IMG/VR virus record: IMGVR_UViG_2663763339_000005
Coordinates: 1 to 45,686 of that record
Length of the DNA: 45,686 nt
Origin: a virus
Taxonomy: Duplodnaviria; Heunggongvirae; Uroviricota; Caudoviricetes
Direction: 5' to 3' (one strand)
How positions within the stretch are numbered: the stretch's first letter is position 1; every line of letters begins with the position of its first letter. The notes beneath the pieces were generated by a model. It saw nothing but the letters and a program-made list of their open reading frames with translations. It was not told where the DNA came from and did not search any database. Below are positions 1 to 34,260 of the stretch, piece by piece. The position numbers and the translations under genes were made by a program.

Positions 1-1164
1 TTACGCCTTCTTTATATCCTCCATAATTCCAGAGTGGGACATATTTGGGACATTATCACCAAAAATGTCGTCTATTTTCCTCGCATGCTCTGTCAAATGA
101 TTAGGCGCAAGGTGAGCATACCTACGAACCATTTCTATGGACTCCCATCCGCCCATTTCCTGAAGCACTGATAATGGGACGCCTGACTGAATCAGCCAGC
201 TTGCCCAGGTGTGTCTGAGGTCATGGAAACGGAAATCTTCAATTCCTGCACGACGACAAGCTGATAGCCATGATGTCTTGCTGTCGATGCGCATCTTCCT
301 GACCGCAGGCGTTGATGTTCCATCTGCTCGCTTAGCCGCCTTGGTATGTACAAACACCCATTTGTGATGCTTGCCTATTTGATCACGCAACACTTTACAG
401 GCGGTATCGTTCAGCGCCACACCAATGGCGCGGTTTGATTTGCTCTCTTCTGGATTCACCCAGGCAACTCGTCGCTGCATGTCGATTTGTTGCCATTCCA
501 GATTTATGATGTTCGACTTTCTCAGACCAGTTGCCAGCGCAAACTTGACGACAGATTTCAGTGGTTCGGGGCACTCATCAATAAGGCGTTTTGCTTCCTC
601 CTTTTCCAGCCATCTGACTCGCTTGTTTCTGACCGCTGGTATCTTGATGACAGGCGCTTTTTCCAGCCACTTCCAGTCGCGTTCTGCAGCACGGAGAATG
701 GCCTTTATCATGGCAAGATGCTTTGCCTTTGTCTGAGTTGATACTGGCTTTGGTTCATAAACAGGCGGTTCTTTACCTTTCCTGATGGCGGCCTGAACTT
801 TCTGTTTCCATATTTCTTTCGTCTTTCTGTTATGCATTCTGCTTACAGCAGAGTAAATCTTTGCCTCCGAGATATCTTTAAGCCTTATACCCTCAAAATG
901 TTCAAGCCAGAACTCAATCCGGCTTTTATCTGAATCGAGAGATTTTTTATCAGCTTTTTCCTCAAGCCATCTTAGGCAGGCCTCTTCAAAAGTGACATCA
1001 GGTAAATCCCCTAGCTTTTCTACTCGCCAGAGTTCTGCTTTTCGCTTGTCGTGCAACTCCTGAGCTTGCCGCTTGTCCTTTGTGCCAAGAGATTCCTTAA
1101 TTCGTTTCCCGCCCGGGAGCGAATACGAGGCATACCATATTTCATTTCTGCGGAAGAGTGACAT
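1..1164 (-). CDS. intD: Tyrosine integrase (DLP12 IntD-type), complete; stop codon at window position 1-3
   Basis: 387-aa ORF with the C-terminal catalytic region typical of tyrosine recombinases (HDLRHT...W...G, RYAH); sequence recalled as matching E. coli IntD; followed upstream by an excisionase-like gene. Confidence 0.93.
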
Positions 1165-1391
1165 TTTCTTTCCTCTGTTATGCCATCACCCGCGCTCACC
1201 TGGACAGTATGCAGCGGAGACTGAAGCGCCGCAATGCAGGCTTGCCGTGTTGTGAGGTAAGGAGATTTTGGCTTGGTTGGATCTTTACGTGTTGCCTGTA
1301 GGCGGCCTGTTCGTATCCAGTTGGTGGCGGTTGGTCTGGATATCTTAAGAAACTGACAGGCCTCATCGAGTGTGAGGCTGTATGATTCCAT
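1020..1391 (-). CDS. Excisionase-like protein (AlpA/Xis MerR-type HTH at N-terminus); overlaps int start
   Basis: ORF 1020..1421 with internal Met ([31 protein letters not shown]) giving an HTH of Xis/AlpA type; position immediately upstream of int. 3' extent uncertain (possibly a degraded or longer-than-usual xis). Confidence 0.55.
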
Positions 1392-1641
1392 GGTTACCTC
1401 TGCTTTTTGAACGCATGTCACGTAACTTCTTAATGTGTTCTGCCGTTTCGATCTCTTCTGCTATCCGATCTGCATCAGCTTTATTCACAGGTTCAAAGTC
1501 ATGATTAAAGCGGAACATGCTGGCGATACATGTTCTGCCTTTTCGGATGTAGTGAACTTTGTTGTGGGTAGAACGCAGGATTTTGCAGGGAGTGCCGTGG
1601 TGGTCGACGTACCAGGTGTTAGGAAAAATGATTCTGAACAT
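1363..1641 (-). CDS. Hypothetical protein (early-left region)
   Basis: 92-aa ORF between xis and the zinc-finger gene, same strand as the pL operon; no family recognised. Confidence 0.35.
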   Translation of the reverse strand: MFRIIFPNTWYVDHHGTPCKILRSTHNKVHYIRKGRTCIASMFRFNHDFEPVNKADADRIAEEIETAEHIKKLRDMRSKSRGNHGIIQPHTR

Positions 1642-1688
1642 TTTTACACCTCAGTTGGACGATGTTGAAATTTGCTGCTTTGAGGCCA

Positions 1689-1907
1689 TCACAGTCCCCA
1701 TTGTTTGTTCTTAAGTTCGATCTCCTCCTGGCAACTCGCACAAGTTCGACAACCCTGAACAGCCAGGCGTCTTCGCTCATCTATCGGATCGCCACACTCA
1801 CAACAATGAGTTGCGGATACAGTCTGGTAGTTCAGACGACGCATTTTTATTGCTGTATTGCGCTGTAATTCTTCGATTTCTGATGCTGAATCAATGATGT
1901 CTGCCAT
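1689..1907 (-). CDS. TraR/DksA-family C4 zinc-finger protein (lambda orf-like)
   Basis: 72 aa with CCECGDPIDERRR...CRTCASC four-cysteine motif typical of the TraR/DksA phage zinc-finger family. Confidence 0.75.
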   Translation of the reverse strand: MADIIDSASEIEELQRNTAIKMRRLNYQTVSATHCCECGDPIDERRRLAVQGCRTCASCQEEIELKNKQWGL

Positions 1908-2005
1908 CTTTCATTAATCCCTGAATTGTTGGTTAATACGCTTGAGGGTAAATGCGAATAATAAAAAAGGAGCCTGTAGCTCCCTGATGATTTTGCTTTT
2001 CATGT

Positions 2006-2221
2006 TCACCGTTCCTTAAAGACGCCGTTCAACATGCCGATCGCCAGGCTTAAATGAGTCGGTGTGAATCCCATCAGCGTTACCGTTTCGCGGTGCTTCT
2101 TTAGTACGCTACGGCAAATGTCATCGACGTTTTTATCCGGAAAATGCTGTCTGGCTTTTTTGATTTCAGAATTAGCCTGACGGGCAATGCTGCGAAGGGC
2201 GTTTTCTTGCTGAGGTGTCAT
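2006..2221 (-). CDS. Hypothetical lambda-like small early protein
   Basis: ORF 2006..2287; likely start at internal Met (MTPQQENAL...) at 2221; resembles small ORFs of the lambda xis-exo interval. Confidence 0.45.
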   Translation of the reverse strand: MTPQQENALRSIARQANSEIKKARQHFPDKNVDDICRSVLKKHRETVTLMGFTPTHLSLAIGMLNGVFKER

Positions 2222-2297
2222 TGAACAAGCCCCATGTCGGCAAGCATAAGCACACAGAATATGAAGCCCGCTGCCAGAAAAATGCATTCAGTGGTTG

Positions 2298-2489
2298 TCA
2301 TACCTGGTCTCTCTCATCTGCTTCTGCTTTCGCCACCATCATTTCCAGCTTTTGTGAAAGGGATGTGGCTAACGTATGAAATTCTTCGTCTGTTTCTACT
2401 GGTATTGGCACAAACCTGACTCCAATTTGAGCAAGGCTATGTGCCATCTCAATACTCGTTCTTAACTCAACAGGAGATGCTTTGTGCAT
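2298..2489 (-). CDS. Hypothetical lambda-like small early protein (orf63-like)
   Basis: 63-aa ORF directly upstream of exo on the same strand; sequence recalled as lambda orf63-like. Confidence 0.5.
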   Translation of the reverse strand: MHKASPVELRTSIEMAHSLAQIGVRFVPIPVETDEEFHTLATSLSQKLEMMVAKAEADERDQV

Positions 2490-2640
2490 ACCGCCTCCCG
2501 TTTATTATTTATCTTCTCAGCCAGCCGCTGTGCTTTCAGGGGATTTCTGATAACAGAAAGGCCGGGAAATACCCAGCCTCGCTTTGTAACGGAGTAGACG
2601 AAAGTGATCGCGCCTACCCGGATATTATCGTGAGGATGCG

Positions 2641-3321
2641 TCATCGCCATTGCTCCCCAAATACAAAACCAATTTCAGCCAGTGCCTCGTCCATTTTTTC
2701 GATGAACTCCGGCACCATCTCGTCAAAACTCGCCATGTACTTTTCATTCCGCTCAATCACGACATAATGCAGGCCTTCACGCTTCATGCGCGGGTCATAG
2801 TTGGCAAAGTACCAGGCATCTTTTCGCGTCACCCACATGCTGTACTGCACCTGGGCCATGTAAGCCGATTTTATTGCCTCGAAACCACCGAGCCGGAATT
2901 TCATGAAATCCCGGGAGGTAAACGGGCATTTCAGTTCAAGGCCGTTGCCGTCACTGCATAAACCATCGGGAGAGCAGGCGGTGCGCATACTTTCGTCGCG
3001 ATAGATGATCGGGGATTCAGTAATATTCACGCCGGAAGTGAATTCAAACAGGGTTCTGGCGTCGTTCTCGTACTGTTTTCCCCAGGCCAGCGCCTTAGCA
3101 TTAACTTCCGGAGCCACACCGGTGCAAACCTCAGCCAGCAGGGTGTGGAAGTAGGACATTTTCATGTCAGGCCACTTCTTTCCTGAGCGGGGCTTTGCTA
3201 TCACGTTGTGAACTTCTGAAGCGGTGATGACGCCGAGCCGTAATTTGTGCCATGCATCATCCCCCTGTTCGACAGCTCTCACGTCGATCCCGGTACGCTG
3301 CAGGATAATGTCCGGTATCAT
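2641..3321 (-). CDS. exo: Lambda exonuclease (Red alpha)
   Basis: 226 aa, near-identical to remembered lambda Exo ([43 protein letters not shown]...). Confidence 0.95.
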
Positions 3322-4103
3322 GCTGCCACCTTCTGCTCAGTGGCTTTCTGTTTCAGGAATCCAAGAGCTTTCACTGCTTCGGCCTGTGTCAGTTCTGACG
3401 ATGCGCGAATGTCGCGGCGAAATATCTGGGAACAGAGCGGCAATAAGTCGTCATCCCATGTTTTATCCAGGGCGATCAGCAGAGTGTTAATCTCCTGCAT
3501 GGTTTCATCGTTAACCGGAGTGATGTCGCGTTCTGGCTGACGTTCTGCAGTGTATGCAGTATTTTCGACAATGCGCTCGGCTTCATCCTTGTCATAGATA
3601 CCAGCAAATCCGAAGGCCAGACGGGCACACTGAATCATGGCTTTATGCCGTAACATCCGTTTGGGATGCGACTGCCACGGCCCCGTGATTTCTCTGCCTT
3701 CGCGGGTTTTGAATGGTTCGCGGCGGCATTCATCCATCCATTCGGTAACGCAGATCGGATGATTACGGTCCTTGCGGTAAATCCGGCATGTACAGGATGC
3801 ATTGTCCTGCTCAAAGTCCATGCCATCAAACTGCTGGTTTTCATTGATGATGCGGGACCAGCCATCAACGCCCACCACCGGAACAATGCCGTTCTGCTTA
3901 TCAGGGAAGGCGTAAATTTCTTTCGTCCACGGATTAAGGCCGTACTGGTTGGCGACGATCAGCAATGCGATGAACTGCGCATCGCTGGCATCACCTTTAA
4001 ATGCCGTCTGGCGAAGAGTGGTGATCAGTTCCTGTGGGTCGACAGAATCCATGCCGACACGTTCAGCCAGCTTCCCTGCCAGCGTTGCGAGTGCTGTACT
4101 CAT
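3318..4103 (-). CDS. bet: Recombination protein Bet (Red beta, ssDNA annealing)
   Basis: 261 aa matching lambda Bet ([48 protein letters not shown]...); 4-nt overlap with exo. Confidence 0.95.
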
Positions 4104-4108
4104 CCGTT

Positions 4109-4405
4109 TTATACCTCTGAATCAATATCAACCTGGTGGTGAGCAATGGTTTCAACCATGTACCGGATGTGTTCTGCCATGCGCTCCTGAAACTCAACAT
4201 CGTCATCAAACGCACGGGTAATGGCTTTTTTGCTGGCCCCGTGGCGTTGCAAATGATCGATGCATAGCGATTCAAACAGGTGCTGGGGCAGGCCTTTTTC
4301 AATGTCGTCTGCCAGTTCTGCCTCTTTCTCTTCACGGGCGATCTGCTGGTAGTAACGCGCCCAGCTCTGAGCCTCAAGACGATCCTGAATGTAATAAGCG
4401 TTCAT
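4109..4405 (-). CDS. gam: Gam (RecBCD inhibitor), short form
   Basis: 98 aa matching lambda GamS ([57 protein letters not shown]...). Confidence 0.93.
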
Positions 4406-4480
4406 GGCTGAACTCCTGAAAATGGCTGTGAAAATATCGCCCGCGAAATGCCAGGCTGATTAGGAAAACAGGAAAGGGGA

Positions 4481-4771
4481 TTAGCGATTCAGGCCGTTAC
4501 CGCGTCCGTCGAGAAAAACTTCCACGAGCAAATCACGGGTATAAGTGCGCTCGATGCCGCGATGCAGATAAAGCCGTCCGCGTAAATTAGCTGATGCAGT
4601 CCAGGTACCATCTTTGTGTTTGACCAGCATTCCTGGCATGACCGCGCCGCGATTAACGGTCTGCGTTCCGTAATGTTGATGAACCATAAAAACTCCTGCC
4701 CGTAAGCTGGGCTGCTGAACATATAGAGACTTCTGCGCGTATTCAGGCGGTGGATGGCCGCCGGTTGTCAT
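4481..4771 (-). CDS. Hypothetical protein in the kil/cIII position of the pL operon
   Basis: 96-aa ORF immediately downstream (in transcription) of the putative pL promoter; no confident family match. Confidence 0.35.
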
Positions 4772-4964
4772 AACTAAGCCGCCTCGTTGAAGCGACTAAG
4801 GTATGAAATGTTGAGTTGATTTCAGCTGGTCACACCGACGTTCACGCGTCCGTTTCACCCCTCGCACTCCCCGAAGCCTGCTGAAATTCAAACTGCGGAT
4901 CTAAGCGGTCATCGCAACGGTGAATCAGGTGGTTGCCGTATCGTTGTGTTGTTGCGATGAACTT

Positions 4965-4993
4965 ATTTAAAACTATAGTTGTTTTACCGTCAA
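4965..4993 (-). promoter_or_regulatory. Putative early-left promoter pL with overlapping operators
   Basis: On minus strand TTGACG-17 nt-TTAAAT; palindromes AACTATAGTT (4971-4980) and AACAACAAAAGTTGTT (4991-5007) overlap the -35 region and spacer; mirrors pR architecture. Confidence 0.5.
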
Positions 4994-5134
4994 CAACAAA
5001 AGTTGTTTTATTGGTTGTTTTAGATATAACTGGTTGTATTTAGGATGGATTTATTTTGTGACTTGAATCGCATAGCGATAACTGAAGCGAGGTTATGGTG
5101 GTTTTTTTAACGGTGTGTGTGATGAGGGGAGGGC

Positions 5135-5165
5135 AAAAGAAAACCCGGCACGGTGACCGGGATTC
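5135..5165 (-). terminator. Rho-independent terminator downstream of repressor gene
   Basis: Minus-strand hairpin CCCGGTCACCGTGCCGGG followed by TTTTCTTTT. Confidence 0.6.
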
Positions 5166-5282
5166 TTACGCCGTTAGGTAAAGATATTATTGCGGTGGCT
5201 TAATATTACTACCTAGAGCAAAGATAGGAATTAGTTCTTTACTGAATGAGCACAATGCCCAGTTGATAATTTTTAATTGGTA

Positions 5283-5972
5283 CTACCCATGCTTCCTATA
5301 TGTCTGCGGCATGCTCCCAATAACCTTACCGAAGATGAACACCCGGTTCATCTCGTCTTTCTCGATCGGGTCCCACGGTGAGTAGCTTTTGTTATCAGAG
5401 ATGACCAGCAGCTTATCCTTCATCATTTGCAGGCGCTTTACATGGGCTGTGTCGTCGTACAGAAACGCATAGATACCATCACCGTCGAAAGATTTAACTG
5501 TGATATCAACGAACAGCAGATCACCTGGTTCGATCGTTCCTGACATGCTGTCACCACGCACGTTAATGATGCGGATATTTTCCGCCTTCCTACCATCGAA
5601 CATATGACGAGCATCGTCAAACGAGTACTCAACCGAGCGTAGAACTTCTACAAACTCACGGTTGATGACTCCCGGCCCAGCACTGACTTCTATATCAAGA
5701 ACGTCAATCTTGAAGTATTTGGAATGGCTGACAGTTGATTGTATTGGTTGCACTGTACTGTCTGACATATTTCCAACGCCAGAAGATAACCATTCTGCGC
5801 GCACACCCAAAGCGTTCGCGATCTCCACGATTTTAGTTGTTTGATTAGCTTTCCCTGTTTCGATTTTCTGAATAGCAGCTTGGCTAACCCCGACCAAATC
5901 CCCAAGCGCCTTTTGTGTAAGGCCTCGCGCTAATCTGGCTTCTTTAAGTCTTTCTGAGAGTGTTGTTTTCAT
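5283..5972 (-). CDS. cI-like prophage repressor (HTH_XRE + LexA-like S24 peptidase domain)
   Basis: ORF 5283..6038; start at internal Met MKTTLSERLKEARLARGLTQKALGDLVGVSQAAIQKIE (HTH); C-terminal domain with GDSM (Ser) and VKRL (Lys) autocleavage motifs; divergent from cro-like gene. Confidence 0.85.
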   Translation of the reverse strand: MKTTLSERLKEARLARGLTQKALGDLVGVSQAAIQKIETGKANQTTKIVEIANALGVRAEWLSSGVGNMSDSTVQPIQSTVSHSKYFKIDVLDIEVSAGPGVINREFVEVLRSVEYSFDDARHMFDGRKAENIRIINVRGDSMSGTIEPGDLLFVDITVKSFDGDGIYAFLYDDTAHVKRLQMMKDKLLVISDNKSYSPWDPIEKDEMNRVFIFGKVIGSMPQTYRKHG

Positions 5973-6014
5973 AGTCCAAATGTACAACCAAGGTTTTATT
6001 TCATCAAACGAAAA

Positions 6015-6048
6015 TGGTTGTTGACTAAAAACAACCATAGTTTTAATC
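6015..6048 (+). promoter_or_regulatory. Putative early-right promoter pR with operator palindrome
   Basis: TTGACT(6020-6025)-17 nt-TAATCT(6043-6048); palindrome GGTTGTTGACTAAAAACAACC overlaps -35; sits between divergent repressor and cro-like genes. Confidence 0.55.
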
Positions 6049-6076
6049 TTGATTCAAATTAACCACGGAGGTTGTT

Positions 6077-6307
6077 ATGAACCCAGCTATCAAAACAGCG
6101 ATCAATATCGTTGGTTCACAAAAGAAACTGGGCGCTGCTTGCGAAGTTTCACAGCAGGCCGTCTATAAGTGGCTTCACAACAAAGCAAAGGTATCCCCTG
6201 AACATGTCGGCAGCATTGTTACGGCTACTGGTGGAGTAGTGAAGGCATACCAGATTCGCCCGGATCTTCCGAAGTTGTTTCCACACACCGAAAAGAACGC
6301 AGCTTAA
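6077..6307 (+). CDS. Cro/YdaS-like small HTH regulator
   Basis: 76 aa, first gene of rightward operon opposite the repressor; GSQKKLGAACEVSQQAVYKW HTH resembles YdaS/Cro family. Confidence 0.75.
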   Translation: MNPAIKTAINIVGSQKKLGAACEVSQQAVYKWLHNKAKVSPEHVGSIVTATGGVVKAYQIRPDLPKLFPHTEKNAA

Positions 6308-6376
6308 ATTTCCATTTCACGCTCTTTAACAATAAGCAATCAACTTAACAGTCAATTCAAACTAAAGGAGTCAATT

Positions 6377-6916
6377 ATGCAACCACTTACATACCAACAG
6401 ACTAGCGGATTTAGCCCGACTGCGGTGATAAATCGTTCTCAAACAAAACAGGTGCCAGGCCACGAAAAAATCCGTGATGCCGTCCGCGCCTGGTCGGCTG
6501 AAGATAATCAGGATGTCGTTGCCGCACTCATTGTGAATGAGTATCGAGCACAGGGCGGCGGCACTATCGATTTTTCTGATGATGTCAGTCGTGCACGCCA
6601 GAAGCTGTTCCGCTTTCTCGATAACAAATTCGATTCTGAAAAATACCGAAATAACGTGCGTGAACTGACTCCAGCAATTCTGGCAGTACTACCGCTGAAA
6701 TATCGCGGCCACCTGGTTGAGCAGGATAGCTTCATGGCTCGGCTGGCTGAAATGGAAAAGGAACTCAGTGAGGCAAAACAGGCTGTCATTCTCAACGCAC
6801 CACGCCACCAGAAACTGAAGGAAATTAGTGAAGGTATTGTGTCGATGTTTCGTGTGGACCCAGATCTGGCTGGTCCATTGATGGCGATGGTTACTACCAT
6901 GCTGGGGGCGATATGA
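6377..6916 (+). CDS. YdaT-like regulatory protein in the cII position
   Basis: 179 aa following cro-like gene; resembles Rac-prophage YdaT family by position and composition (recalled, not searched). Confidence 0.4.
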   Translation: MQPLTYQQTSGFSPTAVINRSQTKQVPGHEKIRDAVRAWSAEDNQDVVAALIVNEYRAQGGGTIDFSDDVSRARQKLFRFLDNKFDSEKYRNNVRELTPAILAVLPLKYRGHLVEQDSFMARLAEMEKELSEAKQAVILNAPRHQKLKEISEGIVSMFRVDPDLAGPLMAMVTTMLGAI

Positions 6917-7002
6917 CAGGTTCAGAAATGGCGAAAGCCGGTCTGCTGGAACAGAACCGACTTTCAGGTGCAAATCGTAACACACTCATTGCGGGAGGAA
7001 TT

Positions 7003-7932
7003 ATGGCAAACACTGCTGAGATATTCAATTTTCCAGTGCCGGATGCGGCACAAAAGGAGCCGCGCGTGGCAGATCTCGATGATGGTTATACGCGCATTGC
7101 AAATGAGTTGCTGGAAGCTGTGATGCTGGCCGGATTAACACAGCACCAGCTTCTGGTCTTCCTAGCTGTCATGCGCAAAACATATGGCTTTAATAAAAAA
7201 CTGGATTGGGTGAGCAACGAGCAACTGTCCGAATTGACCGGGATATTGCCGCACAAGTGTTCTGCTGCAAAAAGTGTTCTGGTAAAGCGTGGGATTTTGA
7301 TTCAGAGCGGGCGGAATATCGGTATTAATAATGTGGTCAGTGAATGGTCAACATTACCCGAATCAGGTAAGAAAAATAAAGTTTACCTGAAAGAGGTAAA
7401 TTTACCTGAATCAGGTAAGAAAAGTTTACCCAAATCAGGTAAAGGCGTTTACCCGAATCAGGTAAACACAAAAGACAAACTAACAAAAGACAATATAAAA
7501 CCTTTTTCGTCCGAGAATTCTGGCGAATCCTCTGACCAACCAGAAAACGATCTTCCTGTGGTGAAACCAGATGCTGCAATTCAGAGCGGCAGCAAGTGGG
7601 GGACAGCAGAAGACCTGACCGCCGCAGAGTGGATGTTTGACATGGTGAAGACCATCGCGCCATCAGCCAGAAAACCGAATTTTGCAGGGTGGGCTAACGA
7701 TATCCGCCTGATGCGTGAACGTGACGGACGTAACCACCGCGACATGTGTGTGCTGTTCCGCTGGGCATGCCAGGACAACTTCTGGTCCGGTAACGTGCTA
7801 AGTCCGGCCAAACTCCGCGACAAGTGGACCCAACTCGAAATCAACCGTAACAAGCAACAGGCAGGCGTGACAGCTAGCAAACCAAAACTCGACCTGACAA
7901 ACACAGACTGGATTTACGGGGTGGATCTATGA
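7003..7932 (+). CDS. Replication initiator O-like protein (contains ori iterons)
   Basis: ORF 6913..7932; start at Met 7003 preceded by GGAGG; N-terminal replisome-organiser-like domain; four iterons inside the gene; followed by lambda P. Confidence 0.8.
   Translation: MANTAEIFNFPVPDAAQKEPRVADLDDGYTRIANELLEAVMLAGLTQHQLLVFLAVMRKTYGFNKKLDWVSNEQLSELTGILPHKCSAAKSVLVKRGILIQSGRNIGINNVVSEWSTLPESGKKNKVYLKEVNLPESGKKSLPKSGKGVYPNQVNTKDKLTKDNIKPFSSENSGESSDQPENDLPVVKPDAAIQSGSKWGTAEDLTAAEWMFDMVKTIAPSARKPNFAGWANDIRLMRERDGRNHRDMCVLFRWACQDNFWSGNVLSPAKLRDKWTQLEINRNKQQAGVTASKPKLDLTNTDWIYGVDL
7353..7467 (+). repeat. Replication origin iterons within O gene (4 x ~ACC(C/T)(G/A)AATCAGGTAA) followed by A/T-rich stretch
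   Basis: Direct repeats cccgaatcaggtaa / cctgaatcaggtaa / cccaaatcaggtaa / cccgaatcaggtaa read directly in sequence. Confidence 0.8.
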
Positions 7933-8630
7933 AAAACATCGCCGCACAGATGATTAACTTTGACCGTGAGCAGATGCGTCGGATCGCCAACAACATGCCG
8001 GAACAGTACGACGAAAAGCCTCAGGTACAGCAGGTAGCGCAGATCATCAATGGTGTGTTCAGCCAGTTACTGGCAACTTTCCCGGCGAGCCTGGCTAACC
8101 GTGACCAGAATGAACTGAACGAAATCCGCCGCCAGTGGGTTCTGGCTTTCCGGGAAAACGGGATCACCACAATGGAACAGGTTAACGCTGGAATGCGCGT
8201 AGCCCGTCGGCAGAATCGACCATTTCTGCCATCACCCGGGCAGTTTGTTGCATGGTGCCGGGAAGAAGCATCCGTTATCGCCGGACTGCCAAACGTCAGC
8301 GAGCTGGTTGATATGGTTTACGAGTATTGCCGGAAGCGAGGCCTGTATCCGGATGCGGAGTCTTATCCGTGGAAATCAAACGCGCACTACTGGCTGGTTA
8401 CCAACCTGTATCAGAACATGCGGGCCAATGCGCTTACTGATGCGGAATTACGCCGTAAGGCCGCAGATGAGCTTGTCCATATGACTGCGAGAATTAACCG
8501 TGGTGAGGCGATCCCTGAACCAGTAAAACAACTTCCTGTTATGGGCGGTAGACCTCTAAATCGTGCACAGGCTCTGGCGAAGATCGCAGAAATTAAAGCT
8601 AAGTTCGGACTGAAAGGAGCAAGTGTATGA
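7929..8630 (+). CDS. P: Replication protein P (DnaB helicase loader)
   Basis: 233 aa, near-identical to remembered lambda P (MKNIAAQM.NFDREQMRRIANNMPEQYDEKPQVQQVAQIINGVFSQLL...). Confidence 0.95.
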   Translation: MKNIAAQMINFDREQMRRIANNMPEQYDEKPQVQQVAQIINGVFSQLLATFPASLANRDQNELNEIRRQWVLAFRENGITTMEQVNAGMRVARRQNRPFLPSPGQFVAWCREEASVIAGLPNVSELVDMVYEYCRKRGLYPDAESYPWKSNAHYWLVTNLYQNMRANALTDAELRRKAADELVHMTARINRGEAIPEPVKQLPVMGGRPLNRAQALAKIAEIKAKFGLKGASV

Positions 8631-8947
8631 CGGGCAAAGAGGCAATTATTCATTACCTGGGGACGCATAAGAGCTTCTGTGCACAGGACGTTGCCGCGGT
8701 AACAGGCGCAACCGTAACCAGCATAAATCAGGCTGCGGCTAAAATGGCGCGGGCAGGAATCCTGGTCGTTGATGGTAAGGTCTGGCGAACGGTGTATTAC
8801 CGGTTCGCTACCAGAGAAGAACGGGAAGGAAAGGTGAGCACGAATCTGATTTTTAAGGAGTGTCGCCAGAGTGCCGCGATGAAACGCGTATTGAGGGTAT
8901 ATAAAAGGAACATCAATGGGTACACAATGATGAAACAGGTGAGTTGA
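8627..8947 (+). CDS. ren: Ren-like protein
   Basis: 106 aa matching lambda Ren N-terminal region (MTGKEAIIHYLGTH.SFCA.DVAA.TGATVTSINQAAAKMARAG...). Confidence 0.85.
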   Translation: MTGKEAIIHYLGTHKSFCAQDVAAVTGATVTSINQAAAKMARAGILVVDGKVWRTVYYRFATREEREGKVSTNLIFKECRQSAAMKRVLRVYKRNINGYTMMKQVS

Positions 8948-8997
8948 TTTCAAACTGTAGTACAATTCTCTCCAGTTTGAACAGGAAAGAATATGCT

Positions 8998-9330
8998 ATG
9001 AACCCTTATATTTATCTTGGTGGTGCAATACTTGCAGAGGTCATTGGTACAACCTTAATGAAGTTTTCAGAAGGTTTTACACGGTTATGGCCATCTGTTG
9101 GTACAATTATTTGTTATTGTGCATCATTCTGGTTATTAGCTCAGACGCTGGCTTATATTCCTACAGGGATTGCTTATGCTATCTGGTCAGGAGTCGGTAT
9201 TGTCCTGATTAGCTTACTGTCATGGGGATTTTTCGGCCAACGGCTGGACCTGCCAGCCATTATAGGCATGATGTTGATTTGTGCCGGTGTGTTGGTTATT
9301 AATTTATTGTCACGAAGCACACCACATTAA
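8998..9330 (+). CDS. emrE: Small multidrug resistance efflux protein EmrE
   Basis: 110 aa from internal Met MNPYIYLGGAILAEVIGTTLMKFSEGFTRLWPS...; four TM helices; known moron of DLP12-type prophages. Confidence 0.92.
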   Translation: MNPYIYLGGAILAEVIGTTLMKFSEGFTRLWPSVGTIICYCASFWLLAQTLAYIPTGIAYAIWSGVGIVLISLLSWGFFGQRLDLPAIIGMMLICAGVLVINLLSRSTPH

Positions 9331-9360
9331 AAATAATTTGTTTCTAAACGACTAAAATAT

Positions 9361-9400
9361 GGAGGCTCTTATATTTATATGAGCCTCGTTTTATGCTTTT
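9361..9400 (+). terminator. Rho-independent terminator after emrE
   Basis: Hairpin GAGGCTC...GAGCCTC followed by GTTTTATGCTTTTTG. Confidence 0.65.
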
Positions 9401-9587
9401 TGTTAATGTCTTTATTTTTTTTATGTATTCTTTTGTGCTTTCAAGATTATGGCGTAAGAAAATTGCAATACGATTATTGTTGTATATTCAAGATAATGTG
9501 ACCTTAATTGTCTTTTTAAATAAAAATTAAACAAAAATTATATCTCACCACTAAGGTTTATAAAAGCATACGTTAGCAGGTGTCACC

Positions 9588-11114
9588 ATGAAAAAAGCCA
9601 TAGCATATATGCGATTTTCATCACCAGGTCAGATGTCTGGCGACTCATTAAACCGACAGAGAAGACTTATTGCTGAATGGTTAAAGGTAAATAGTGATTA
9701 TTATCTTGATACCATAACATATGAAGATTTAGGATTAAGTGCATTCAAAGGAAAGCATGCACAATCAGGAGCTTTTTCGGAATTTTTAGATGCTATAGAG
9801 CATGGTTATATATTGCCAGGAACTACATTGTTAGTTGAAAGTCTGGACAGACTTTCAAGAGAAAAAGTCGGTGAAGCGATTGAGCGTCTGAAATTGATTT
9901 TGAATCACGGTATTGATGTTATAACTCTTTGCGATAATACAGTCTATAATATTGACTCTTTGAATGATCCATATTCATTAATAAAAGCCATACTTATAGC
10001 ACAAAGGGCAAATGAAGAAAGCGAGATAAAGTCAAGTCGGGTTAAATTATCATGGAAGAAAAAACGGCAGGATGCACTGGAGTCAGGCACGATTATGACG
10101 GCGTCTTGTCCGAGATGGCTCTCCTTAGATGACAAAAGAACGGCTTTTGTTCCAGACCCCGACAGGGTGAAAACTATTGAGCTAATTTTTAAACTCAGGA
10201 TGGAAAGGCGCTCATTGAATGCAATAGCCAAGTATTTAAATGATCATGCTGTAAAGAATTTCTCAGGAAAAGAAAGTGCATGGGGACCTTCTGTAATTGA
10301 AAAATTATTAGCGAATAAAGCTCTGATAGGTATATGCGTACCTTCATATCGTGCAAGAGGTAAAGGAATAAGTGAAATCGCTGGCTATTATCCCAGAGTC
10401 ATATCAGATGATTTGTTTTACGCTGTGCAGGAAATTCGGTTGGCACCTTTTGGTATTAGCAATAGTAGCAAAAACCCTATGTTGATAAATCTACTTCGAA
10501 CAGTTATGAAGTGCGAGGCTTGTGGTAATACCATGATTGTTCATGCGGTATCTGGAAGTTTGCATGGCTATTATGTTTGTCCGATGAGAAGACTGCATCG
10601 ATGTGACAGGCCATCAATAAAGAGAGATTTGGTTGATTATAATATCATTAATGAGTTGCTTTTTAATTGTAGTAAAATCCAACCAGTTGAAAACAAGAAA
10701 GATGCTAATGAAACTTTAGAGTTGAAAATTATTGAGCTCCAGATGAAAATTAATAATTTAATTGCTGCATTATCTGTTGCGCCTGAAGTTACCGCTATAG
10801 CAGAAAAAATCAGAGTATTAGATAAGGAATTACGAAGGGCTTCTGTATCATTAAAAACTTTGAAGAGTAAAGCGGTGAGCTCACTTGGTGATTTTCATGC
10901 TATTGACTTAACCAGTAAAAATGGGCGAGAGCTATGTCGTACACTTGCCTATAAAACATTCGAAAAAATCATAATCAATACAGATAATAAAACCTGTGAT
11001 ATCTATTTTATGAATGGCATTGTTTTTAAACACTATCCTTTAATGAAAACAATATCCGCCCAGCAGGCGATAAGTACTCTCAAATATATGGTTGATGGTG
11101 AGGTTTATTTTTGA
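9588..11114 (+). CDS. ybcK: Large serine recombinase (resolvase-domain N-terminus, zinc ribbon, coiled coil), YbcK-like
   Basis: 508 aa; N-terminal resolvase fold with catalytic Ser in AIAYMRFSSPGQ; cysteine cluster CEACGN...CPMRRLHRC; AT-rich codon usage indicating foreign origin. Confidence 0.85.
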   Translation: MKKAIAYMRFSSPGQMSGDSLNRQRRLIAEWLKVNSDYYLDTITYEDLGLSAFKGKHAQSGAFSEFLDAIEHGYILPGTTLLVESLDRLSREKVGEAIERLKLILNHGIDVITLCDNTVYNIDSLNDPYSLIKAILIAQRANEESEIKSSRVKLSWKKKRQDALESGTIMTASCPRWLSLDDKRTAFVPDPDRVKTIELIFKLRMERRSLNAIAKYLNDHAVKNFSGKESAWGPSVIEKLLANKALIGICVPSYRARGKGISEIAGYYPRVISDDLFYAVQEIRLAPFGISNSSKNPMLINLLRTVMKCEACGNTMIVHAVSGSLHGYYVCPMRRLHRCDRPSIKRDLVDYNIINELLFNCSKIQPVENKKDANETLELKIIELQMKINNLIAALSVAPEVTAIAEKIRVLDKELRRASVSLKTLKSKAVSSLGDFHAIDLTSKNGRELCRTLAYKTFEKIIINTDNKTCDIYFMNGIVFKHYPLMKTISAQQAISTLKYMVDGEVYF

Positions 11115-11225
11115 GTAATAATCACTTTTTCAACCGTGCTATAGTAAGAAAGTTAGGTAAGTACAATAAAATTATCTATCCTGAACGAAGCGTCCTGAGC
11201 TATGGTTTTACTATAGGGACTGCCA

Positions 11226-11543
11226 ATGGATGCTGGCGTTCTCGTTCTAGCAGTTCAACAATCCCCAATCACAAAACAATTCACTGATAACGAACTTTGC
11301 ACACTCGCCTGGTTATGGCGAGCAGGGAATGTGATGTTAATTGCCTACCAGAACGTTACTCATCTTCTTCAGGATGCGGAGCATGGTGAAGCTGGTCACT
11401 TCACTTCCATCGAGCAAGAATATCCCCAGATACTCAACAGAGCGCGAGCAATCCTCGTCCGAGAAACGGCACATGTAAAACTTCAGCCGTGGCAGGATGA
11501 TAAGTGGAGTCGAGTATTGCCGTATTTGCGTCAAATCTGTTAG
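11226..11543 (+). CDS. Hypothetical protein
   Basis: 105-aa ORF in AT-rich island between ybcK and the next ORF; no family recognised. Confidence 0.3.
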   Translation: MDAGVLVLAVQQSPITKQFTDNELCTLAWLWRAGNVMLIAYQNVTHLLQDAEHGEAGHFTSIEQEYPQILNRARAILVRETAHVKLQPWQDDKWSRVLPYLRQIC

Positions 11544-11747
11544 GAGTATAGCCGCCAGCCATGAGTGTTGTATTAAAACAAGGATGTCTATATATGGGAT
11601 AGCGAGAGTATGAATATCAGTTATTTTGAGAGTTAACTGATTGTGAAATTAGTTTTTTTCACAAACGAGTGGGGTTACTATGATGAGTGTTCTAATGCAT
11701 AGGGAACACCTAATTTTTTCAATGAATTCAAATTGATAGGATCAAAA

Positions 11748-12677
11748 ATGGCACAACAGAGAACTACCTCCCTCAGATCCATACCTTTAGACTTAGATGT
11801 TAAGCAAGAGGCTGTCATTAACGGTATAGAAATGGGGGTACTCGATAACGGAATTCCGTACCTTACTCAGAATGGGTTGGCAAATGTTTGTGGTGTTCAG
11901 CGTTTGCGAATCAAGGAAATTACCGATGAGTGGGCTCAATCCGTTGAGAACGGTATTTTCAAAAAAGGAAGAATGACTTTTATTGGTACATATCTTCTTA
12001 ATGAAGGTTTTACAGATGAAAAACTTTATATACCAATAATTCGAAATGGTGTTGAGTACCATGCTTATCCAGATGTTGTATGCATGGCTATACTTGAATA
12101 CTATGCCTTTGAAGCAAAACAAGCAGAAAGTGAGACTGCAATTAGATCTTACAGAGAGCTTGCTAAAAAAGGCCTCAAGACATTTATATACGAGGCGCTA
12201 AAATATCAACCGGAGGACCCGTGGAGGCATTACCATGACAGAGTATCTTTATTAAAAGATAAGGGAACCATACCTGATGGGTATTTCATTATATTTAATG
12301 AAATTGCAGGTATGATGGTAGATCTCATCAATGCTGGATTAGCGATTAATCAGCATACCGTACCTGATGGCAGTGTTGGTTCTTGCTGGGCGCGTCACTG
12401 GAAAGCAAAGGGGTTAGCAACAGAATTTGGAGAAAGAGTAGACTGTGAGCATTATTACCCTGAAGATTTTCTTCAGGCAAGTTCCAATCCTCAGATCATT
12501 AATGCCTATCCTGATTCTGCATTGTCAGAGTTTCGTAGATGGTTTAAGCATGAATATTTAACCACAAAGTTCCCACCGTATATTCTTAAAAAATCAAACG
12601 TGCTTCCTGGTGGTACAGAAGATGCTAATCGTCTGATAGAAGCTTTCAAAAAATCAGAGCTAGAAAATAAACCATAA
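11748..12677 (+). CDS. Hypothetical phage moron protein (possible antirepressor-like N-terminal domain)
   Basis: ORF 11733..12677; start at Met 11748 preceded by AGGA; ~309 aa; AT-rich; occupies the slot where K-12 DLP12 has ybcL/ybcM; function unassigned. Confidence 0.45.
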   Translation: MAQQRTTSLRSIPLDLDVKQEAVINGIEMGVLDNGIPYLTQNGLANVCGVQRLRIKEITDEWAQSVENGIFKKGRMTFIGTYLLNEGFTDEKLYIPIIRNGVEYHAYPDVVCMAILEYYAFEAKQAESETAIRSYRELAKKGLKTFIYEALKYQPEDPWRHYHDRVSLLKDKGTIPDGYFIIFNEIAGMMVDLINAGLAINQHTVPDGSVGSCWARHWKAKGLATEFGERVDCEHYYPEDFLQASSNPQIINAYPDSALSEFRRWFKHEYLTTKFPPYILKKSNVLPGGTEDANRLIEAFKKSELENKP

Positions 12678-12873
12678 TTGTTTTTTGGCTTTTGATTTTA
12701 CATAATCATTTTGCCATAATCATGTCATCGGAGCCTGAACAACTCCGGTGACTTCTGCGCTAAACGGGGACGTTTATGCGCACATACAATCCAAACTCTC
12801 TTCTCCCTTCACAGATGCAGAGATGCACCTGCGATTTTTTGCATCCAGCGTTTGACCTCTGCGGAGGTGAAGC

Positions 12874-13329
12874 GTGAATCTCCCACAAGATGGCATCAAA
12901 TTACATCGCGGTAACTTCACCGCTATCGGTCGGCAGATCCAGCCTTATCTGGAGGAGGGCAAATGCTTTCGCATGGTGCTTAAACCGTGGCGTGAGAAAC
13001 GCAGTCTTTCCCAGAATGCACTCAGCCACATGTGGTACAGCGAAATCAGTGAATACCTCATCAACAGGGGTAAAACGTTCGCCACTCCAGCTTGGGTAAA
13101 AGATGCTCTCAAACACACATATCTCGGTTATGAAACCAAAGACCTGGTTGATGTCGTAACCGGTGATATCACCACTATCCAGTCGTTACGCCATACCTCC
13201 GATCTTGATACCGGAGAGATGTATGTCTTCCTGTGTAAGGTTGAAGCCTGGGCGGTGAATATTGGCTGCCACCTGACTATTCCGCAGAGCTGCGAGTTCC
13301 AGCTGCTCCGTGACAAGCAGGAGGCGTAA
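12874..13329 (+). CDS. ybcN: NinB/YbcN-family protein
   Basis: 151 aa recalled as matching E. coli YbcN; begins the nin-like gene string with translationally coupled downstream genes. Confidence 0.8.
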
Positions 13330-13499
13330 TGGCTACACCGCTTATTCGTGTCATGAACGGACACATCTACAGAGTATCAAATCGTCGTAAGCGTAAGCCT
13401 GAGCCGAAGCCATCCGAAATACCAACACTGCTCGGATATACCGCTAGCCTGGTTGATAAAAAATGGTTGCGACTGGCAGCAAGGAGGAATCATGGCTGA
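13329..13499 (+). CDS. ninE: NinE-like small protein
   Basis: 56-aa ORF ([56 protein letters not shown]) read from sequence; TAATG overlap with ybcN stop; below six-frame track cutoff. Confidence 0.75.
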   Translation: MATPLIRVMNGHIYRVSNRRKRKPEPKPSEIPTLLGYTASLVDKKWLRLAARRNHG

Positions 13500-13782
13500 T
13501 TTGAGAAAAGCAGCGCGTGGTCGGGAATGCCAGGTAAGAATCCCTGGCGTATGTAATGGCAATTCTGAAACGTCTGTACTGGCACATATCCGGCTGGCTG
13601 GATTGTGCGGTACCGGTATCAAACCGCCAGACCTGATTGCCACCATTGCATGTTCTGCCTGCCACGACGAAATCGACCGCCGCACACATTTTGTCGATGC
13701 TGCATATGCAAAAGAATGCGCGCTGGAAGGTATGGCGAGAACACAGGTTATCTGGCTGAAAGAGGGGGTTATTAAGGCGTGA
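13492..13782 (+). CDS. ybcO: YbcO-like nuclease (DUF1364 family)
   Basis: ORF 13453..13782 with start at [34 protein letters not shown]...; cysteine/histidine-rich; overlaps ninE stop. Confidence 0.8.
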
Positions 13783-14141
13783 ATACCTACAGCATCACAT
13801 TACCCTGGCCTCCGAGCAATAATCGCTATTACCGCCATAATCGCGGGCGCACGCACATCAGCGCAGAAGGGCAGGCATACCGCGATAACGTCACCCGAAT
13901 CATTAAAAACGCAATGCTGGATATCGGCCTGGCTATGCCAGTGAAAATCCGTATTGAGTGCCACATGCCGGATCGCCGTCGCCGTGACCTGGATAATCTG
14001 CAAAAAGCCGCTTTTGACGCACTCACCAAAGCAGGTTTCTGGCTGGATGATGCTCAGGTCGTTGATTACCGCGTTGTGAAGATGCCTGTTACCAAAGGTG
14101 GGAGGCTGGAACTGACCATCACCGAAATGGGGAATGAATGA
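13779..14141 (+). CDS. rusA: Holliday junction resolvase RusA
   Basis: 120 aa matching RusA ([36 protein letters not shown]...DLDNL). Confidence 0.93.
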
Positions 14142-14278
14142 TGTTTGAGTTTTATATGGCAGAACTTCTTCGCCACCGCTGGGGGCATCTGCGCTTATAT
14201 CGTTTCCCCGGTTCTGTTTTGACCGATTACCGAATACTGAAGAATTACGCCAAAACCCTGACAGGAGCAGGAGTATGA
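14138..14278 (+). CDS. ylcG: YlcG-like small protein
   Basis: 46-aa [49 protein letters not shown] read from sequence, overlapping rusA stop. Confidence 0.7.
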
Positions 14279-14363
14279 AGTCAGAGATAACAATCAACTA
14301 ATACTGTTTTGTTGATTTTTGCTTGTAATTGGCGTTCTGGTCTGATTTTTGTGGAGTAAGTTG

Positions 14364-14747
14364 ATGCGTGATATTCAGATGGTTCTTGAGCGTTGGGGAG
14401 CGTGGGCGGCTAATAATCATGAAGATGTGACCTGGTCGTCCATTGCCGCCGGTTTTAAGGGATTAATTACTTCAAAAGTAAAATCTCGCCCGCAATGTTG
14501 TGACGATGACGCGATGATTATTTGCGGGTGCATGGCCCGTCTGAAAAAGAACAACAGCGATTTGCACGATTTATTAGTAGATTATTATGTAGTCGGTATG
14601 ACATTCATGTCACTGGCAGGTAAGCATTGCTGCTCTGATGGTTATATCGGGAAAAGGTTACAGAAGGCTGAGGGCATAATTGAAGGGATGTTAATGGCAT
14701 TAGATATCCGGTTAGAGATGGATATCGTTGTTAATAACTCTAATTAA
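14364..14747 (+). CDS. quuD: Late-gene antiterminator Q (QuuD type)
   Basis: ORF 14349..14747; start at [22 protein letters not shown]...; cysteine cluster [12 protein letters not shown]; position upstream of lysis cassette. Confidence 0.9.
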
Positions 14748-14885
14748 TATGCCAATTGTTTACTAAAAATTATTAAAAATGGGGCGTTGAGACGCCCCCA
14801 AAAATAAAGGGTAATATATAACAGAAGGTTTATATAGTTAGAAGCAAGGTTGTGCTTCTAAAGGAAGTGGCTTGAGGGAGCCACT

Positions 14886-14925
14886 TATATGTTGGGGAGG
14901 CAACGCCTCCCGCAACATATCTTTT
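14886..14925. terminator. Bidirectional rho-independent terminator between Q and convergent nmpC
   Basis: Long palindrome ATATGTTGGGGAGGCAACGCCTCCCGCAACATAT followed by CTTTTTCG; a second hairpin GGGGCGTTGAGACGCCCC lies at about 14780-14797. Confidence 0.7.
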
Positions 14926-14936
14926 TCGTAATCAGA

Positions 14937-16034
14937 TTAGAACTGGTAAACCAGACCTACAGCAACGATGTCATCAGTGCTTACACCGAGTGCTTTAGTG
15001 AAGTCATTTTTGTCAAGCAGGTTGATTTTGTAATCAACGAAAGTAGACATATTTTTGTTGAAGTAATAGGTTGCACCTACATCAACATATTTGACTAAGT
15101 CCTGATCGCCCCATACTCCAAGATCTTTACCTTTAGATTGCAGGTAAGCAACGGACGGACGCAGACCGAAATCGAACTGATATTGTGCAACAGCTTCGAA
15201 GTTTTGGGCTTTATTAGCAACGAAGTGATCAGCAAATACAGTCATATTCTGGGTTTCAGAATAGGTAGTGGCCAGGTAAATGTTGTTAGCGTCATATTTC
15301 AGACCTGCGGCCCAAACTTCTGCATTTTTACCGGAAGCAAATACTTCAGGAAGAACTTTCCCTGCATTAACTTGAGTGTCGGTACGATCAGATTTCGCAT
15401 AAGTTGCACCGATACCGAATCCTTCGTATTCATAGGTAGCAGAGAAACCGAAGCCATCACCGTTACCTTCAGTGTAGTTATCGAAATCGCTACGATCGTT
15501 TTTGCCTTGGTACTGAGCAGCAAAGTTCAGACCATCAACCAGACCAAAGAAGTCGTTGTTACGATAGGTTGCAACACCAGTGGTGCGACCAGTCATGAAC
15601 ACATCTGTTTGGGTCCAGGTATCGCCACCGAATTCTGGCAGAACGTCAGTCCACGCACCGATGTCGTATGCTACACCGTAGTTACGGCCGTAATCGATTG
15701 AGCCGTAGTCACCGAATTTCAGGCCTGCAAATGCAAGACGGGTTTTGTCTTTGGAGGAACCTTGAGATTCAGCGCGGTTGCCTTTGAATTCATATTCCCA
15801 CTGACCGAAACCAGTCAGTTGATCGTTGATTTGGGTTTCACCTTTGAAGCCAAGACGGGCATAAGTAGTATCACCATCATCTGCATCATTAGAGGAGAAG
15901 TAGTGCTTGGCATTAACTTTCCCGTACAGATCCAGCTTGTTACTGTCTTTATTATAAATTTCAGCTGCCTGAGCAGACATCGCCATCAGTACTGATGCAG
16001 CTACAGCAGAAATTGCCACTGTTAATTTTTTCAT
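14937..16034 (-). CDS. nmpC: Outer membrane porin NmpC (OmpC/OmpF family), intact
   Basis: 365 aa with signal peptide [23 protein letters not shown] and C-terminal ...VGLVYQF beta-barrel terminus; no IS interruption. Confidence 0.93.
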
Positions 16035-16622
16035 CGTGAGCCCTTTTTTTTGAACTATTATTAAAAAATGATGTCACTGCGCGATAAATATTCATCTAAT
16101 CAATGTGATTATTTCAAGATGTAAGTTTTAGTTTCTCATTTAATTTGTGAAGTAGATCTCTATTTTTATCTGAACTTTTTCTATCGAAACCTATTTATGG
16201 CTCTTATTTGAACAAAAATAAACCTATTAGCTAATTTATATTAATGGTTGTTATTTATGGAGGTTCTATAATTCGGCAGTTTAATTTAAATCAACTAAAA
16301 ATAACGTCTGAAATTATTTATTGGTTATTTGTTGAGGTTTTCTTATGTATTTGTGGTGGTGTTTTGAACACTCGGTAGCATTCTCATAAATATCATTCAG
16401 TGGTTTACGTACGTAAAAAATTGGTTATGCTGTTAAGAGTGGTTACTTCGTCACACAGCTTAAACCCGCCGTCGAGCTGGTTTTTCCATTTTTTGAGTCT
16501 CGATATTAGCTGATAACTCAATACCTGAGTTATTCACTGACTCCGAGTCTGTTACGTTTCTGCTTTTTTGCGATACGTTGTATTCCCTCAATTTACACCC
16601 GCTTTGTCTGCGAGGTGGGGTT

Positions 16623-16838
16623 ATGAAATCCATGGATAAGTTAACAACGGGTGTCGCCTATGGCACCTCAGCAGGTAGTGCCGGTTACTGGTTTTTACAG
16701 CTGCTCGATAAAGTCACGCCCTCACAGTGGGCAGCAATAGGTGTGCTGGGTAGCCTGGTATTTGGCCTGCTGACGTACCTGACAAACCTTTATTTCAAGA
16801 TTAAAGAAGATAAGCGCAAGGCTGCGAGAGGTGAATAA
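16623..16838 (+). CDS. essD: Holin, phage-21 S-type (pinholin), EssD
   Basis: ORF 16578..16838; start at [28 protein letters not shown]...; two TM segments; immediately upstream of endolysin. Confidence 0.88.
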
Positions 16839-17793: not shown

Positions 17794-17824
17794 AGCTGAC
17801 CATATCGATGGGCAACTCATGCAA

Positions 17825-19050: not shown

Positions 19051-19061
19051 TGGAATGAACA

Positions 19062-19607: not shown

Positions 19608-23288
<3,681 letters not shown>

Positions 23289-34250: not shown

Positions 34251-34260
34251 TGAGGCGGCT

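Follow-up and report, generated by a model that had tools for sequence, protein, structure and literature searches.

The transcript predicted to start at the leftward promoter pL of a lambda-like prophage that lacks an N gene opens with about 140 nucleotides of conserved, structured RNA, as judged from the comparison of related sequences. This leader RNA may function as a cis-acting processive antiterminator for the left operon, a reading to which we assign a probability of roughly 0.55. The broader proposal stands at even odds in our estimate: such leaders may constitute a second class of RNAs that bind the polymerase and cause processive antitermination without a protein, with a structure unrelated to that of put RNAs. 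They would be pseudoknotted, extend for 100–140 nucleotides from position +1 of pL, be interchangeable with put RNAs by cassette exchange, and occur in prophages of about 40% of complete E. coli genomes.

The analysed stretch of DNA, 45,686 nucleotides long and referred to here as the window, is an intact lambda-like (lambdoid) prophage of the DLP12/Bievrevirus type without an N gene. The region of interest is 99% identical to phages PhiR34_1 and Turner. The features of the prophage and of the leader RNA are listed in Table 1.

Table 1. Features of the prophage and of the predicted pL leader RNA (positions in the window)
Feature	Position	Strand	Remarks
Left arm		minus	int, xis, small lambda-like ORFs, exo, bet, gam, kil
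Intrinsic terminator	1967–1985	minus	8-bp stem, then UUUUUUAUUAUU; precedes DksA-like gene, xis and int; −10.2 kcal/mol, z = −3.45
Terminator-like hairpin	2558–2580	minus	pL operon, downstream of exo; 9-bp GC-rich stem, z = −3.7
kil (68 aa)	4481–4687	minus	first recognised left-operon gene; phrog_294, E = 1e-38
Separate conserved module	4746–4808	minus	63 nt upstream of kil: hairpin, AUGACAACC, GGCGG-CCAUCCA-CCGCC hairpin
Conserved pL-leader RNA	4819–4958	minus	P0, P2, P1, P3 and three invariant joining blocks; family alignment, model R1
P1 3' arm GCUGAAAU	4819–4826	minus	predicted 3' boundary of the RNA
Invariant block GUGACCA	4827–4833	minus	alignment A1; ends the core
P3 hairpin	4834–4853	minus	ACGGACG / CGUGAA loop / CGUCGGU; conserved internal G.G pair
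G-rich joining block GGAGUGCGAGGGGUGAA	4854–4870	minus	conserved; GCGAGGGGU invariant in A1
P2 3' arm CUUCGG	4871–4876	minus	predicted to pair with 4893–4898
P1 5' arm AUUUCAGC	4880–4887	minus	within the P2 loop
P2 5' arm CCGCAG	4893–4898	minus	predicted to pair with 4871–4876
Invariant block ACCGCUUAGA	4900–4909	minus	identical in 24 of 24 sequences of A1
P0 3' arm GUUGCGAUGA	4909–4918	minus	just before ACCGCUUAGA; inverted repeat, pairing kept in relatives
P0 5' arm UCAUCGCAAC	4951–4960	minus	transcript 5' end
pL −10 hexamer TTAAAT	4965–4970	minus	read from sequence; 17-nt spacer to −35
oL operator repeats	4967–5043		three copies; repeat pairs I1, I2, I7, I8, I16, D3
pL −35 hexamer TTGACG	4988–4993	minus	read from sequence; mirrors pR −35 TTGACT inside operator repeats
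cI-transcript terminator	5144–5161	minus	upstream limit of pL region; one edge of cargo slot
cI-like repressor	5283–5963	minus	immunity region
YdaS-like cro	6077–6307		immunity region
YdaT/CII-like gene	6377–6916		immunity region
Right arm			O, P, ren, cargo genes, nin region, Q-like gene at 14349–14747

The pL region lacks an N gene

The six-frame list of ORFs contains none of 60 codons or more on either strand of positions 4772–5282, which confirms the ORF-free interval of about 500 bp on which the original prediction was built. Between the start of a 96-codon ORF (4771) and the stop codon of cI (5283), there are a 31-residue ORF on the minus strand (4796–4891) and a 36-residue ORF on the plus strand (4933–5043), both starting with TTG. 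Two further short plus-strand ORFs of 40 and 34 residues start at 5263 and 5277 and overlap the 3' end of cI. The gene-free gap is actually about 595 bp long, because Kil proper is the 68-residue ORF at 4481–4687. Kil is annotated with the same length of 68 residues in HK225 and 4A7.

The N family was searched for in several places. A small antiterminator gene expressed from pL at another position, which would have spoken against an RNA-based mechanism, was looked for, and none of the nine left-operon ORFs scanned had a PHROGs match to N. Four right-operon genes (ren, Q, NinB and RusA) were scanned against PHROGs as well and provided no N gene, and N is not the first gene after the element in any of ten other family members. 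Neither N nor Nun appears in the curated and automatic annotations of phages that are 99% identical to the window. The ORF list, the PHROGs scan and the annotations of near-identical phages thus bear out the claim that pL is not followed by a gene of the size of N or Nun.

The pL-like promoter and the operator elements that had been noted in the gap were confirmed, and the promoter with its oL operators occupies positions 4965–5043. The oL repeats mirror those of oR at 5984–6046, for example over 19 nucleotides with 95% identity. A consensus promoter scan did not list pL at 4993–4965. The positions of the −35 and −10 hexamers place the predicted transcript start at approximately A4958, within the 5' arm of P0. 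In 80 IMG/VR loci with identical Kil, which include three different immunity types, conservation of the transcribed leader is 95% or higher. In phages with type-B immunity (4A7 and Perceval), homology to the window starts at 4958–4959, which is the boundary between promoter and transcript, and in those with type-C immunity the similarity starts at 4924.

The stretch from the cI terminator to pL (5144–5282) is a cargo slot, which is empty in the window. The same slot is filled in relatives (L001, L003, L007 and L088) with GevA/GevT, a HipA-type toxin pair, a 543-residue protein, or an ASCH-domain gene pair. Cargo of the DLP12 type is also present in the right arm (8944–12870 and 14937–16034), where it includes an EmrE-like SMR transporter, a YbcK-like recombinase, YbcL, YbcM, and an NmpC/OmpD-like porin.

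Predicted fold of the leader RNA

In the 5' to 3' direction, the predicted fold consists of helix P0, the single-stranded block ACCGCUUAGA, helix P2 with its loop engaged in P1, the block GAGUGCGAGGGGU, hairpin P3, and the block GUGACCA. The helix P0 corresponds to a 10-bp inverted repeat, in which TCATCGCAAC (4909–4918) and GTTGCGATGA (4951–4960) are 100% complementary and located 32 nucleotides apart. A 9-bp stem had been described immediately past the −10 hexamer; the stem is real and is positioned at the transcript start, and its length is 10 bp. It is the conserved helix P0, which covaries in other subfamilies. The expectation that the pL transcript begins with a structured leader was correct. 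The functional core of the RNA (4819–4916) is located downstream of this stem.

P0 is the closing helix of the family and pairs the 5' end of the transcript in most subfamilies. Its arms have different sequences elsewhere and still pair (CAUCGAG/CUCGAUG, CAUCGAA/UUCGAUG, and CACGCAGAG/UUCUGUGUG). The pairing is retained even across the recombination joint of type-C immunity, as UAUUGCA/UGCGAUG. In subfamilies in which P0 was found, its 5' arm begins 5–7 nucleotides past the −10 hexamer.

Helix P1 would pair the P2 loop with the 3' tail of the RNA, and the leader therefore probably contains a pseudoknot. P1 comprises 8–12 bp in the E. coli and L114 groups, and other pairing sequences occupy its site in the L110 group (UAUCAG/CUGAUA) and in L121 (AUCUCAA/UUGAGAU). 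It is missing from one subfamily, the short-loop subgroup. The 3' boundary of the RNA was placed at 4819, because frequent substitutions resume just downstream (4818–4796). The joining block between P2 and P3 has the family form G(A/C)GUGCGAGGGGU. In P3, positions 4853–4847 are predicted to pair with 4840–4834, and the internal G.G pair is kept in 31 of 34 distinct sequences. The family is recognised by the blocks ACCGCUUAGA, GCGAGGGGU and GUGACCA in this order, split by covarying P2 and P3, and the window contains this arrangement.

Two- to three-codon mini-ORFs with good ribosome-binding sites are positioned just 3' of the RNA in other subfamilies (L114, L096, L125 and L127). Their sequences, AUG AAG CAC UAA and AUG CAC AAC UAA, recall the bar minigenes of lambda.

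Selection for the fold among relatives

Folding of the single sequence is unremarkable in comparison with shuffled sequences, with z-scores of −0.61 for positions 4772–4965 and +0.11 for 4811–4960. Since the window sequence is no more stable than its shuffled controls, the case for a leader fold beyond chance rests on the relatives. The structure prediction and Rfam search that had been suggested for the pL leader thus provided neither an unusual folding energy nor an Rfam match, whereas comparative covariation was strong.

The fold was evaluated in an unfitted MAFFT alignment of 24 distinct sequences (A1) and in a model-fitted alignment (A2). Standard pairs occupy 80.9% of the paired cells of A1, compared to 25–45% when the partners were slid relative to each other. 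Thirteen pairs changed on both sides, against two to nine in the slid controls. The covariation score of 0.379 exceeded those of the slid controls (at most 0.094) and was not reached by any of 500 shuffles. Alignment A2 agrees with this picture, and most of the support comes from P2 and P3. Five of the six pairs of P2 change on both sides across the family, with 86–89% of cells paired, as do six of the seven pairs of P3. The helices between the invariant blocks have wholly different sequences in different subfamilies.

Within the E. coli population, the common substitutions in the helices either turn a pair into G.U, fall on a position that is already mismatched, or affect the end pair of P0 (4960). 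This end pair is upstream of the predicted transcript start, and the remaining disruptive changes are singletons. The comparison of relatives demonstrates that the predicted leader fold is under selection, always next to the promoter and independently of the type of repressor and of the downstream gene.

Distribution and annotation of the element

The covariance model of the family (R1) matches the window at 4811–4916 with a score of 119 bits (E ~4e-27). A search with filters off revealed no second copy within positions 1–20000 of the window, including none in the pR operon. All 44 matches of R1 in the fetched loci directly follow a −10 hexamer, and about 19 different promoter and operator sequences are located upstream of them. 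The carriers are enterobacterial prophages without N, in which a pL-type, repressor-controlled leftward promoter is positioned just upstream of the element, and the downstream genes are unrelated between subfamilies. R1 found nothing significant in HK022, HK639 and HK225.

The element is present in 2210 of 5426 complete E. coli genomes (~40%). Distant copies are encoded in the genomes of Scandinavium, Trabulsiella and Enterobacter, and a pattern scan of IMG/VR provided 29 further loci. Human-gut metagenomes also carry the element, and the metagenome scans returned E. coli-type variants and one L114-type sequence, without a new subfamily.

No Rfam 15 family matched positions 4811–4960 at E values up to 10 in a scan of 4300–7000, where only chance matches elsewhere were reported, and five loci from other subfamilies had no match at E up to 1. 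In the literature covered, the motif strings matched unrelated primers only; a study outside that scope, King et al. 2011 (J Bacteriol 193:5784), reportedly deals with antiterminator RNAs in HK639. All 12 sampled E. coli records lack an annotated feature beneath the match. The element occurs in 16 deposited phage genomes, where it is either unannotated or translated as a long Kil or hypothetical protein, and recognition of the leader as an RNA would correct such records.

A boxA motif and a conserved module upstream of kil

An exact boxA, CGCTCTTTAACAA, is located on the plus strand at 6320–6332, between cro and the cII-like gene, which is the position of nutR. The window contains no other exact match. 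Five nucleotides past this boxA (region 6320–6350, plus strand) is the sequence AATCAACTTAACA, which recurs as AATCAACTCAACA at 4809–4821 of the minus strand, where the pL RNA has its 3' edge. The type-B phages 4A7 and Perceval, in which the gap between cro and cII is 30 nucleotides long, lack both boxA and the 13-mer. The two motifs could be what is left of a nut site, or they could provide the right operon with a Nus-dependent anti-Rho signal. The pL leader contains neither a boxB hairpin nor a boxA within three mismatches, and no boxB-like hairpin is common to the two early transcripts.

A separate conserved module precedes kil (4746–4808). It is 77–97% identical in other genera whose Kil proteins are about 40% identical, and the highest value, 97%, is that of Enterobacter prophages. 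The module opens variable ORFs, all of which start with MTTGGHPPP, including a polyproline stretch. In HK225 and HK639 the module follows an intrinsic terminator, and the record of HK639 annotates its GGCGG hairpin as a terminator.

The element alternates with put RNAs at pL

The put RNAs are about 70 nucleotides long, consist of two stem-loops and a short triplex, and act without a phage protein (PMC9378689). The record of HK639 contains a "putL-like antiterminator RNA" at 34187–34312, downstream of pL. HK639 and three carriers of the new element (L135, L105 and L122) have in common a 52-nucleotide 5' leader module and the 3' flank, and L135 and HK639 also have the same first gene. Between these common flanks, HK639 contains put, and L135, L105 and L122 contain the new element.

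The new element is absent from all of 80 put-bearing loci, and a search of 14 loci with the element revealed put in none of them. As judged by these loci, the new element and put alternate at pL and are mutually exclusive. The cassette swap indicates that the two are interchangeable in position, which does not entail that they work by the same mechanism. The original prediction of a put-type RNA was therefore right in part: the comparative context makes the leader a likely stand-in for put, and both its architecture and the covariance search described below place it outside the put family.

The initial transcribed sequence at pL includes other modules. A 45-nucleotide module, CATCGAAACGAAACATCGACAGCTGAGCGAAGTTAGCCAGCGGCG, occurs without any difference at pL of phi80 and HK225 and of several phages of Enterobacter and Klebsiella, CobraSix and KO-TP1 being among the phages named, and it is 96% identical over 53 nucleotides in HK639. 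In HK225 (L087, 4830–5097), it is followed by a GC-rich leader of about 290 nucleotides that is free of ORFs. This leader contains neither put nor the new element and may be a further type of leader RNA.

Proposed mechanism and alternative functions of the leader

Based on the conservation of the leader and its alternation with put, the following mechanism can be proposed. Transcription would start from pL at about position 4958, and the nascent RNA corresponding to 4958–4819 would fold. The folded leader may then bind in cis the polymerase that has synthesised it, in the manner of the put RNA of HK022. Mutations in the beta-prime zinc-binding domain prevent put from acting. The polymerase with the bound leader would become resistant to pausing and termination throughout the left operon, so that kil, gam, bet and exo, and then xis and int, could be expressed without any phage protein. 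The hairpins at 2580–2558 and 1985–1967, which stand between the recombination genes and xis and int, would be read through. The HK639 terminator ACCCGCUCCGGCGGGUUUUUU is retained in at least five element-bearing relatives, and the adjacent GGCGG hairpin is present in others.

Why antitermination would be needed is less obvious for the E. coli group than for the HK639-like relatives, because the element directly adjoins the kil leader, and the closest strong terminator predicted downstream is about 2.2 kb away. The leader RNA cannot account for transcription reaching Q, because it is present in a single copy and is absent from the pR operon. Between pR and Q, a simple scan revealed no strong intrinsic terminator on the plus strand.

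Three other functions of the leader carry lower weight than antitermination. One of them, which we consider unlikely, is that of a nut-like recognition site, in which a phage protein or host factor would bind the invariant blocks and be loaded onto the polymerase, making antitermination dependent on a protein. The approximately 30 invariant unpaired nucleotides would fit such a protein site, as would the exact boxA at the nutR position and the recurrence of the neighbouring 13-mer at the 3' edge of the RNA. However, no N-like ORF was found among the scanned ORFs of the window or the first genes of ten other family members, and the single copy of the element has no partner site in pR. The nut-like reading of boxA and the 13-mer was rejected, since the 13-mer is polymorphic and type-B phages have the same leader but neither motif. 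In addition, put, for which the element is exchanged, functions without a phage protein (PMC9378689).

It is unlikely to a similar degree that the leader is a sensor, such as a riboswitch, thermosensor or attenuator, through which a signal from the host would gate the elongation of left-operon transcripts or their translation. A compact pseudoknotted RNA with invariant joining regions resembles an aptamer, and its promoter-proximal position in the region controlling lysis and lysogeny would suit a sensor. Nevertheless, no conserved expression platform was found after the element: there is no conserved terminator, anti-terminator or structure sequestering the ribosome-binding site, and the downstream sequences and genes vary. 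The Rfam searches of the window and of other subfamilies, at the E values given above, matched no family, and the swap with put argues for a constitutive function in elongation.

A function of the leader in transcript stability or processing, with P0 burying the 5' triphosphate and protecting the early message, or as the precursor from which a trans-acting small RNA would be cleaved, is quite improbable. In most subfamilies the extreme 5' end of the transcript is indeed paired in P0, and regulatory small RNAs encoded by prophages are common in E. coli (bioRxiv preprint 10.64898/2026.05.13.724894). A stabilising hairpin, however, requires neither an invariant core of 100 nucleotides nor a pseudoknot, and the element lacks its own terminator. 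None of the small RNA families in Rfam, AgvB and AsxR included, is matched by the element, and its exclusive alternation with put would be left unexplained.

The reading of the region as protein-coding is effectively excluded. The ORF starting with TTG at 4891, or with GTG at 4858 preceded by GGGGAG nine nucleotides upstream, would specify either an arginine-rich peptide (MKRTRERRCDQLK...) or additional residues at the N-terminus of Kil, which might serve as a miniature N-like factor. It encodes KRTRERR, resembling the arginine-rich motif of N, and many of the changes are at third positions. The codon TAG at 4798–4796 is CAG in most relatives, in which the frame continues into kil, as annotated in Perceval and PhiR47_2. 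Nonetheless, in the L114/L096 subfamily GUG is followed at once by UAA, and the TTG frame meets UGA. The in-frame TAG is present in the window and in several viable phages, and two relatives have frameshifting indels. The PHROGs match covers the 68-residue Kil part only, and the pattern of substitutions fits RNA pairing. The arginine-rich mini-ORF was rejected as an artefact of the G-rich core, in which the reading frame is not conserved. The annotation of Kil at 68, 77, 96, 128 or 139 residues results from the replacement of TAG (4796–4798, minus strand) by CAG in most relatives, and the long Kil annotations translate straight through the structured RNA.

Membership of the leader in the put family, judged by similarity to putL and putR (CGAACGGC ... 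GGCGKG.UCA.GGAWGA ... CAAU), was evaluated with a covariance model (R2) built from 16 put sequences. The putL and putR sequences of HK022 were read from its genome according to the numbering of the cryo-EM study (PMC9378689), and a put pattern retrieved more than 120 IMG/VR loci. R2 recovers putL of HK022 (94 bits), putL of HK639 (81 bits) and putR of HK022 (65 bits). When R2 was applied to positions 1–16000 of the window with filters off, the best score was 10.3 bits (E = 0.4), in the overlap of the exo and bet genes at 3241–3279. Since R2 finds the known puts and nothing in the window, the leader does not belong to the put family, and the resemblance to HK022-like put sequences anticipated in the original prediction was not found, with nothing above ~10 bits against 65–94 bits for known puts. 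The same position and the same N-less phage background notwithstanding, the chance that the leader is a diverged HK022-type put RNA is vanishingly small, given this score, the absence of common sequence blocks, and the different number and arrangement of helices.

Comparison with known antitermination systems

As an antiterminator, the leader RNA would take the regulatory role of the lambda N/nutL/nutR system, from the same position between pL and the recombination genes. Lambda encodes N, with its N-terminal arginine-rich motif, as the first gene of the pL operon, whereas the window has no N ORF. Both early transcripts of lambda contain a boxA and a boxB hairpin, whereas in the window an exact boxA is present only between cro and cII and is confined to one immunity type.

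Processive antitermination by RNA alone is known from very few systems. Apart from its own system, which combines RNA with protein, a study from 2021 counted only put and EAR as RNA-based antiterminators (PMC8191782). EAR from the eps operons of Bacillus and conAn2 from conjugative plasmids of Gram-positive bacteria are structured leader RNAs as well, and they are thought to act in cis by modifying the polymerase during elongation (PMC8191782). Their hosts and sequences are unrelated to those of the new RNA, which no Rfam family matches, and conAn2 requires a partner protein.

The closest parallel is put, the only such RNA whose structure on the polymerase is available in the literature covered (PMC9378689). 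Both put and the new RNA occupy the start of the pL transcript in lambdoid phages without N, and both have conserved unpaired nucleotides between helices. The two stem-loops of put are joined at a single G, whereas the new RNA is predicted to have four helices, including a pseudoknot, with invariant joiners of 10 to 17 nucleotides in a total of 100–140 nucleotides. The new RNA also contains a conserved G.G pair and has no sequence blocks in common with put. HK022 has putR past pR, whereas the window contains no second copy of the new RNA past pR; HK639 has put in the left operon only, as do about two thirds of the put-bearing contigs among the matches listed.

If the leader is an antiterminator, it would explain how the recombination and excision genes are expressed in a very common group of E. 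coli prophages without N. The compact variants of 95 nucleotides, such as that of L125, lend themselves well to cryo-EM and could be employed as portable genetic parts. An RNA with a fold unrelated to that of put, performing the same job in the same slot, would provide an independent view of how a nascent RNA locks the polymerase in a termination-resistant state.
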